In this document: positions 51,916 to 53,988 of the stretch, piece after piece
How positions within the stretch are numbered: position 1 is the stretch's first letter
How the letters are laid out: every line of letters starts with the position of its first letter
Assembly (NCBI GenBank): GCA_951406725.2
Contig: OX597818.1
Location: forward strand, 52,452,001 to 52,516,000
Direction: 5' to 3'
DNA: 64,000 nt
Source of the DNA: Octopus vulgaris
Taxonomy: Eukaryota
Made by a program: the position numbers and the translations under genes
Notes under the pieces: generated by a model
Databases searched by the model: none
What the model saw: the letters and a program-made list of their open reading frames with translations, nothing else
Told to the model about the DNA's origin: nothing

Positions 51916-52252
51916 AATATTTTTTATAATTATGAATATAATTATAATTAGGGTTCAGCAAAAAAAAAAAATTGCTTCTCCACATACCGAACTTTAGAAA
52001 TAGCAGCCAAAGTACTTAGCTATTTCTTCTTATAGTAGAAGAAATAGCTAAGTTCTTTGGCTGCTATTTCTAAAGTTCGGTATGTGGAGAAGCAAATTTT
52101 TTTTGCTAAACCCTAATTATAATTATATTCATAACTATAAAAAATATTGTTTAAGTTTACCGAAAATGGTCCTTTTAACATGCCGAATACTACTTGATGG
52201 AAGTAGTAATTATTAATTAATTAATCAATTTTACCCTTTATTATTATTGATA
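51916..52252. mobile_element. Fold-back element (arms 51916-52030 / 52037-52148) plus extension; related to 53225-53415
   Basis: GAAGAAATAGC.AA.TT.TTTGGCTGCTATTTCT..AAGTTCGGT.TGTGG shared with the hammerhead-bearing element. Confidence 0.75.
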
Positions 52253-52520
52253 TATATAAGAATGTATGTATATATACGTACATATGTGTGTGTATGTGTG
52301 TATGCACATACATATATACACACACACATATATATGTATGTATATATATATATATATATCTATATCTATATCTATCTATCTATCTATCTATCTATCTATC
52401 TATCTATCTATCTATTTATCTATTTATATCTATATCTATCTATCTATCTATCTATCTATCTATCTATCTATCTATCTATCTATCTATCTATCTATCTATC
52501 TATCTATATATATATATAGA

Positions 52521-52913
52521 TCAGGGACATGCCACTTAGGTAGGCAAGGTAGGCACTGCCGACCTTGAATAAAACAGACTGATAGCAACATTTTATGGCA
52601 AAATATGCGCTTAATTCAATAAAATTATGAAGGTTGCTCTGATTACTATGCATAAAATACAAAATATTTTATTCTTTATAGATTAGGTAGGCATAATTCG
52701 CCCCTGCTTTTCAATCTCAATATTTAAGCTACGTATAGAACTGCTGTAGGACACGCGATGCTTACATTCTTACGTCTTCTTTACGTGCTATAAAGACAGA
52801 AGGAAATCTGCCTTCAACTCAGTCACGCGCCTGTGTTTCGATTATTTTTTGTGTGTTTTACTACATAAAGGTCACCAACCGCCTACCCTGAGTAAATATT
52901 GACGGCACGTGCA
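52521..52913. mobile_element. Possible hAT-like MITE
   Basis: Degenerate ends CAGGGACATGCC / GGCACGTGCA with subterminal GGTAGGC / GCCTACC. Confidence 0.4.
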
Positions 52914-53064
52914 TATATATATATATATATATATATATATATATATATATATATATATATATATATATATATATATATGTGTGTGTGTGTATATATATAT
53001 ATGTATATATATATATATATATATATATATATATATATATATATATATATATATTTATAAAAAT

Positions 53065-53133
53065 ATGCTCTGAGCTGATGAAGGAAAAGTGGCGTTTAAC
53101 CCACGAATCCAGAAACAGGCTGTCCTCGGGTAT
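53065..53133 (+). ncRNA. Type I hammerhead ribozyme at the 5' part of a ~360-bp element (53055-53415)
   Basis: TCTGAG-CTGATGA-A-GGA..GTGG..CCAC..TCC-A-GAAAC-AGGCT-GTC-CTCGGG; GUC cleavage triplet. Confidence 0.82.
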
Positions 53134-53988
53134 CTTATATGGATGTGATCTTTCATTGTTTTTCCCTTATACCTATGTGAGTTATTTTCTGAGTATACAT
53201 TGTCTGGAGACTTTTATTTGCAGTTGAAGAAATAGCCAAATTTTTGGCTGCTATTTCTGAAAAGTTCGGTGTGTGGTAAAGTGAATTTTTTACTTTACCA
53301 TATTTTTATAAATTAATACTTCAAATATACCGTAAACGGTCTTTTTACATAACGAATACTGCTTGGTCGAATTGATTAACAATTAATTAATTCTACCCCT
53401 TTTTTACTGACAATATATTTATATATATATATATATATATATATATACCCCCATATATATATATATATAGAGAGAGAGAGTATTTGAAGAGGTGTATAGA
53501 TATTGCATATCGAGACAAAGGAGGCAGTCAAAATTTTGAACAATTCTTTATTAGCGCTTTCGTTCATTTATCGAATTCGTCAAGACAAAATTAAAACCAA
53601 AATGATTTTTATTTTGTCATGACATGTTCGATAAGCGAACGAAAGCGCTAATAAAGAATTATCTAAAATTCTGACTGCCTTCTTTTTTTCAATACACACA
53701 TATACGGACACATGTATGTACATACGTATGTATGTATATATGCATATGCATATTTTGTTGATATCGTAATAATTTATAAACTTTCGAGAGTTTGAGTTGA
53801 ATCTCGAAGTATACATATTAGCACTGGTTGAGAAGCCATTTTGGTTAACTTTAAATTTAGTTTGAGATTCAATTCCAAAAAAATTATTGTTGTTGTTGTT
53901 GATCTTTACTTTTAACCTGCATGTTTGTTGCAATCACTTGCCAAGACACACCCAGCACCCTAAGGCAAGTGAAAGATTAGGGATGCTA

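Follow-up and report, generated by a model that had tools for sequence, protein, structure and literature searches.

An asymmetric fold-back and a hammerhead-bearing relative in one TA-rich tract of Octopus vulgaris are probably non-autonomous Penelope-like elements

Penelope-like elements (PLEs) insert into (TA)n targets and carry inverted, 5′-truncated copies at their 5′ ends (published for these elements in PMC8557442), and hammerheads have been described in their pLTRs (PMC8557442, PMC8969392). PLEs make up 6.83% of the Octopus vulgaris assembly, according to a row of the PMC13282606 supplement. PMC4209133 describes metazoan hammerheads as having a dimeric form with a palindromic helix III, PLE hammerheads as having an unpaired base after A9 followed by a highly conserved G10.1–C11.1 pair, and Penelope pLTRs as sequences that may contain an intron. 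Self-priming has been given as the cause of head-to-head palindromic junctions, for which an antisense template was proposed (PMC3846280); with R2, cDNA snap-back in TPRT produces this geometry from a sense template (PMC11371274). In vitro, uncleaved RNA is reported as the main substrate (PMC11167929). Short non-coding hammerhead elements are called retrozymes (PMC7229834), and a preprint derives those of animals from pLTRs (10.64898/2026.07.22.740005).

The DNA analyzed here (the window) is a 64,000-nucleotide stretch of the O. vulgaris genome in which microsatellites and short repeats are abundant and RT fragments are also present. Its sole Rfam match at gathering score is to U6 snRNA (62832-62935, minus strand, 101 bits); this gene or retrocopy identifies the window as eukaryotic. 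Fragments of RT elements recognized by Pfam RVT_1 and zf-RVT, which we take to be LINE-like, lie at 2257-3318 (split by a TA run), 5818-6957, and 42465-43922. SINE-like units of 163-190 nt form short dispersed tandem arrays at 967-1383, 16629-16993, 17787-18151, 23161-23665, 24152-24522, 45658-46008, and 48198-48572.

Two related plus-strand sequences, copy A (52034-52250) and copy B (53057-53415, ∼360 nt), were compared by local alignment of 52035-52255 with 53055-53420. Copy A matched the 3′ half of B (53222-53415) in 161 of 227 columns, 37 of the columns being gaps, and the alignment score of 113 was far above that of dinucleotide shuffles (22.2 ± 3.0, 0/1000 as high), so the homology is not due to AT-richness. 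BLASTN reported 71.4% identity over 192 columns (E ∼1e-18), and MAFFT placed identical bases in 143 of 187 ungapped columns (76%). The sequence-only reading had put this homology at 52037-52250 and 53225-53415 and had proposed a pairwise alignment as a check; the alignment is significant beyond AT-richness, and those coordinates are right. The two copies have a common 3′ end, followed in each by TA repeats (n = 2), and different 5′ ends, B reaching ∼165 nt further 5′ than A and beginning with a type I hammerhead motif. A fixed 3′ end with differing 5′ truncation is therefore seen in both of the copies available.

Copy A is preceded by a left arm (51916-52030, 115 nt, minus strand) in which its first 112 nt (52037-52148) recur as the reverse complement. 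The arms are identical at 108 of 112 positions, differ by four substitutions and by one T/A run whose length varies by 3 nt, and are separated by a 6-nt loop (52031-52036). Past the right arm, the homology of A to B runs on for ∼100 nt, so the palindrome is asymmetric: a truncated element bears an inverted duplicate at its head. Sequence of the direct copy is repeated in the inverted arm, beginning at the truncation point, and, with polarity read from the hammerhead of B, this arm constitutes a head-to-head inverted 5′-truncated copy at the 5′ end of A. That A is 5′-truncated and preceded by its own inversion had also been recognized in the sequence-only reading.

The loop can be aligned with native sequence of B: together with the two preceding bases (52029-52036), it matches 53217-53224 at five of eight positions, and the three differences are transitions. 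Such a match is what a cDNA extended by a few bases before folding back on itself would be expected to give. Microhomology at the outer junction of A amounts to only ∼1 nt. No native micro-hairpin was found at the homologous junction in the cDNA of B (−0.3 kcal/mol), so the snap-back primer in A is a putative one. The fold-back is unlike L1 twin priming, in which breakpoints are only 1-10 bp apart in the data given in PMC11702581, whereas the inverted arm of A overlaps the direct copy. A motif scan of B found donor-like sequence at 53177 and, ending at 53223, an acceptor-like motif to whose AG the breakpoint of A maps in the alignment. The 47-nt segment that these motifs delimit (53177-53223, plus strand) would be short for an intron, and we mention it as a speculative lead only.

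Long (TA)n runs (52913-53056 and 53416-53469) flank copy B, whereas the flanks of A are short, ∼6 and 4 units, the left one (51905-51915) being the presumed target; the earlier statement that both copies sit in (TA)n is thus correct. They had also been described as side by side members of the same family. They do share one TA-rich tract, but they are not adjacent: the ∼800 nt between them comprise ∼270 nt of mixed TA/TG/CA/TATC microsatellite (52251-52518), an unrelated 394-nt segment between TA runs that matches neither A nor B (52519-52912), and ∼145 nt of (TA)n. They are likewise homologous with a common 3′ end, but at 71-76% identity they would be better described as related subfamilies. 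The divergence between A and B is 24-29%, compared with ∼4% between the arms of A. From this spacing and divergence, we conclude that A and B inserted separately into the TA-rich tract that they share and do not belong to a single compound insertion. A local tandem duplication was ruled out as their origin, as the flanks do not match.

The 394-nt segment has short subterminal inverted motifs and one weak match, at 50340-50375; we take it to be possibly the remnant of a DNA transposon. BLASTN and nhmmer searches of the window found no third copy beyond A, its arm, and B. Blastn of B against a phage collection gave no match, and one 26-base pattern had 0 matches in a prokaryotic genome collection. 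A search of open-access literature turned up no description of the A/B family or of hammerheads in octopus genomes; since Repbase and Dfam lie outside that literature, this negative is weak evidence.

The hammerhead motif of B (53065-53133, plus strand) has the core sequences CUGAUGA (53075-53081) and GAAA (53112-53115). Its helix I consists of 6 bp (53069-53074/53125-53130) and can be extended over a bulge to 53065/53133, and its helix II has 3 bp, an internal loop, and 4 bp, with an A·A mismatch at the base. Helix III, of 3 bp with a 3-nt loop, falls in a near-palindromic sequence (53115-53123) made up of an 8-nt palindrome and one central extra G, and cleavage is predicted after C53124 (C17). 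A hammerhead descriptor composed after B had been seen, in which helix II may start with a mismatch, was satisfied by 0/5000 shuffles of B. The earlier claim that B extends upstream through a hammerhead at 53065-53133 is thereby supported at the level of a motif, one that goes undetected by Rfam, which returned no hammerhead at gathering score in the whole window or at E ≤ 10 in 51800-53500. At the latter threshold that region gave 80 matches, all below gathering, and the miRNA matches are explained by hairpin shape and microsatellite sequence. Copy A contains no hammerhead, and neither a second hammerhead of the family of B nor a tandem unit was found, so B has a single hammerhead.

The motif of B folds no better than its shuffles (z −0.59). 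In the monomer, pair probabilities are 0.96-1.0 in helix II, 0.63-0.79 for the five inner pairs of helix I, and ≤0.01 in helix III. Because helix III is an 8-nt palindrome with a central G, two B RNAs could pair into the dimeric form. On the basis of this folding model, little or no activity is likely for the lone hammerhead of B, because its helix III depends on a dimer partner and its helix II begins with A·A.

In the whole window, the first descriptor, which limits helix II to ≤45 nt, found three motifs and missed a long-helix-II motif at 31631, whereas a wider descriptor found four (31631+, 32194+, 53075+, and 56949−). The mean number of matches expected for the wider descriptor is 0.03, and 0/100 shuffles scored as high. 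All four matches have mismatch geometry, with U·U (31631+, 32194+, and 56949−) or A·A (B) at the helix II base instead of G–C; there were 0 matches with canonical or PLE hammerhead geometry. Each of the four lies within 140 nt of a TA run, while 14% of the background lies within 150 nt. U·U is a natural variant reported to be the best tolerated mismatch (PMC3088659), and it is also found in an axolotl motif (PMC7229834). In B, the position of G10.1–C11.1 is occupied by A·A. The absence of this pair lowers, without excluding, the membership of B among PLEs, because the descriptor is likewise not fully matched by the D. virilis motif.

The motifs at 32187-32240 (plus strand) and 56955-56905 (minus strand) are type I hammerhead motifs near TA runs, with U·U at the helix II base and no sequence match to A or B. 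Two homologous TA-bounded islands on the plus strand, 1868-2101 and 31492-31743 (z 11.9), have hammerhead cores with a long insert in helix II, U·U at the helix II base, and a palindromic helix III. Between these islands, helices I and II show compensatory differences at paired positions, and the cleavage triplet of 1868-2101 is damaged. A degenerate hammerhead-like motif at 33877-33825 (minus strand) resembles the core of B and has C·A at the helix II base, a similar helix III, and a helix I of ∼3 bp; the neighboring island at 33544-33700 has a 12-nt word of its helix II. The damaged motifs at ∼1908 and 33877 fail both descriptors and are outside the above counts.

The part common to A and B is non-coding, being broken by frame-disrupting indels, and Pfam gave no match to the 49-aa frame of B, which starts inside the hammerhead core. 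The consensus fold of the common part on the plus strand has an energy of −23.4 kcal/mol, compared with −8.4 ± 3.0 for column-shuffled alignments (0/300 as low), and that on the minus strand has −11.65 kcal/mol, with 3/300 column shuffles as low. The better fold of the plus strand agrees, for two sequences only, with the hammerhead strand as the RNA. The fold predicts, in both copies, a hairpin with a 9-bp base directly 3′ of the breakpoint of A (52040-52071) and a long-range helix between 52075-52085 and 52178-52188 that encloses the variable part, with 11 bp in A and 10 of 11 in B; in B alone, this helix has a pair probability of up to 0.54. With two sequences, one of 33 pairs is changed on both sides, a value reached in 241/500 shuffles, and covariation is thus uninformative here. 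Pairing is only slightly higher in conserved than in variable columns (0.60 vs 0.51 and 0.57 vs 0.52).

These features resemble those of canonical EN+ PLEs (Penelope/Poseidon, Neptune, Nematis, and Hydra) and of solo pLTRs, which have a type I hammerhead with a small palindromic helix III, as recognized in B by the post hoc descriptor, as well as 5′ truncation, a head-to-head inverted 5′-truncated copy, and an AT-rich or (TA)n target (PMC8557442, PMC3846280), such as the TA runs that flank both copies. Most PLE hammerheads are, as in B, single dispersed motifs (PMC4209133). In contrast to canonical EN+ PLEs, no ORF, tandem pLTR, or tail was seen at A and B, and helix II of B starts with A·A instead of an unpaired base and G–C and is interrupted by an internal loop. 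No tandem pLTR arrangement, 30-40-nt tail, or TSD is discernible at these two diverged copies. A Pfam scan of 204 frames (203 of ≥62 aa and the 49-aa frame of B) found no PLE RT or GIY-YIG ORF in the window; the only RT-related hits were three to RVT_1 and one to zf-RVT, none near A or B. PLE motif patterns had two isolated matches in the window, neither of them near A or B.

Naiad elements share with A and B the (TA)n target and inverted 5′-truncated copies and have left remnants in Octopus species, but they lack canonical hammerheads (PMC8557442). Three short motifs of A and B had 0 matches in the supplement of that paper and in that of PMC13282606, the latter consisting of methods and a table and not of a repeat library. 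Metazoan non-LTR retrozymes are, like B, non-coding, 170-400 nt long, and structured as RNA, with a type I hammerhead (PMC7229834), and solo monomers are a recognized retrozyme category in the preprint (10.64898/2026.07.22.740005). A and B differ from retrozymes in having no tandem repeat or second hammerhead of the same family, and B keeps a whole uncut hammerhead near its 5′ end. The fold-back of A resembles the snap-back of R2 PRINT, in which the 3′ end of the cDNA primes on the cDNA before 5′ joining and antisense element sequence thereby becomes linked to the target (PMC11371274); R2 itself is a non-LTR element specific to rDNA, and the likeness is one of mechanistic analogy and not of membership.

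Based on these comparisons, the combination at A and B of homology with a common 3′ end, head-to-head duplication, hammerhead-shaped motif, and TA flanks is a known footprint of Penelope-like retrotransposons and not a new system. We consider it likely that A and B are non-autonomous Penelope-like elements of the pLTR/retrozyme type that entered (TA)n by TPRT and that the palindrome of A arose by cDNA snap-back; this assignment is the best inference and not a direct demonstration. The sequence-only reading had seen here a direct link between palindromes and ribozyme elements and support for a Penelope-like mechanism. The fold-back of A is indeed related to a hammerhead-bearing element, but the link consists of one pair of copies, and A itself has no ribozyme. 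Similarly, the palindrome at the head side and the common 3′ end are as published for PLEs, but the window contains no RT/GIY-YIG ORF, and snap-back is not diagnostic of Penelope-like elements because it has also been published for R2.

Under the Penelope-like assignment, an autonomous element located elsewhere in the genome would have supplied the RT and GIY-YIG endonuclease that mobilized A and B in trans. The protein would bind a plus-strand RNA that begins with a type I hammerhead and has a structured domain toward its 3′ end. The endonuclease would nick (TA)n, and cDNA synthesis would be primed from the nick at a fixed point, which would account for the common 3′ end that is observed. The RT would have passed through the uncleaved hammerhead in B, while for A it would have stopped ∼215 nt in, past the conserved hairpin. 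The 3′ end of the cDNA of A would then have folded over the 6-nt loop, self-primed, and copied ∼112 nt, as suggested by the observed geometry, and, once the extended strand was joined to the other (TA)n end, the truncated copy would have been left with its inverted duplicate in head-to-head orientation.

A hammerhead-bearing SINE-like or retrozyme RNA could instead have been mobilized by a LINE, for example of the R2/R4 type or RTE, with an ordinary TPRT snap-back and no Penelope-like protein. Snap-back junctions have been reported for the R2 protein (PMC11371274), the window has RT fragments and no PLE ORF, and the choice between LINEs and PLEs is left open for metazoan retrozymes in PMC7229834. 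On the other hand, the 3′ termini of A and B have neither poly(A) nor a shared LINE 3′ end, type I hammerheads with a palindromic helix III and (TA)n targets have been described for PLEs in the sources cited above, and the preprint's derivation of animal retrozymes is from pLTRs (10.64898/2026.07.22.740005). We therefore regard mobilization by a LINE as unlikely.

A second asymmetric fold-back in the window, at 33214-33518, lies between TA runs and has arms (33214-33319 and 33328-33433) that are identical at 106 of 106 positions, an 8-nt loop, and an 85-nt tail to 33518. Its outer end coincides with the single TATATATA that the element contains, an 8-nt microhomology with the target. Its layout matches that of the fold-back of A, which favors the Penelope-like reading. 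No hammerhead-bearing relative of this fold-back was found in the window, its single weak match (z 3.3) being to A. This fold-back bears on a further possibility, that A and B are Penelope-like elements but that the palindrome of A postdates its insertion and stems from a DNA break repaired by hairpin-primed synthesis, with no reverse transcription. Fold-back-templated inverted duplications occur at DNA breaks in yeast (PMC11724301), and the inversion cannot be dated relative to insertion from one locus. Those of yeast are mostly 5-34 bp, compared with 112 and 106 here, and in each of the window's two asymmetric fold-backs the outer end of the arm directly adjoins (TA)n, as expected if they formed during integration. 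A repair origin of the palindrome thus appears quite improbable.

A short C-run motif occurs 5-20 nt before a TA run or AT-rich end in the islands that end at 52250, 53415, 33750, 56730-56770, and 33518. Found at the ends of several TA-bounded islands, it could be a candidate for a common priming signal.

There is very little probability, in our estimate, that A is a palindromic MITE or another derivative of a DNA transposon and B a MITE fragment joined to an unrelated hammerhead piece. TA is the target of Tc1/mariner-type elements, with which the TA flanks would also be compatible. A symmetric MITE-like palindrome (53508-53703, arms ∼81% complementary) adjoins B and is unrelated to it. B has no terminal inverted repeats, and the right arm of A stops ∼100 nt inside the homologous unit. 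Because the homology to B crosses the end of the right arm and continues to the common 3′ end, the palindrome is not the mobile unit. A sequencing or assembly fold-back artifact is the least credible origin, for although the perfect identity of the 33214-33433 arms would suit one, a very young event gives the same, and the arms of A differ by their substitutions and 3-nt indel, with unique sequence resuming on either side.

If the preferred Penelope-like reading is extended, one can conceive, with considerable doubt, of a radiation in this host of short, protein-free ribozyme retroelements that target (TA)n. In these, G10.1–C11.1 would have given way to a mismatch (U·U in three motifs, A·A in B, and C·A in the degenerate one), the structured 3′ RNA domain would serve as a protein-binding signal, and truncated insertions would routinely be finished by cDNA snap-back at TA microhomology. 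If so, a genome-wide catalog of junctions would test snap-back of cDNA from a sense template against the use of an antisense template, a choice that PMC3846280 leaves open, and the position of the breakpoint of A at an acceptor-like AG would tie snap-back to intron retention.

The value of these findings is mostly one of annotation, as the combination of palindrome, hammerhead, and (TA)n has already been published for Penelope-like elements. Short palindromes and scattered hammerhead motifs in TA microsatellites can be read as the debris of one class of retroelement, a class that Rfam misses, and the mismatch at the base of helix II may represent a lineage-specific variant of the hammerhead core. 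Two asymmetric fold-backs and at least four hammerhead motifs in 64 kb suggest that many such junctions exist genome-wide, and these would constitute a natural data set on how the 5′ ends of Penelope-like insertions are resolved.
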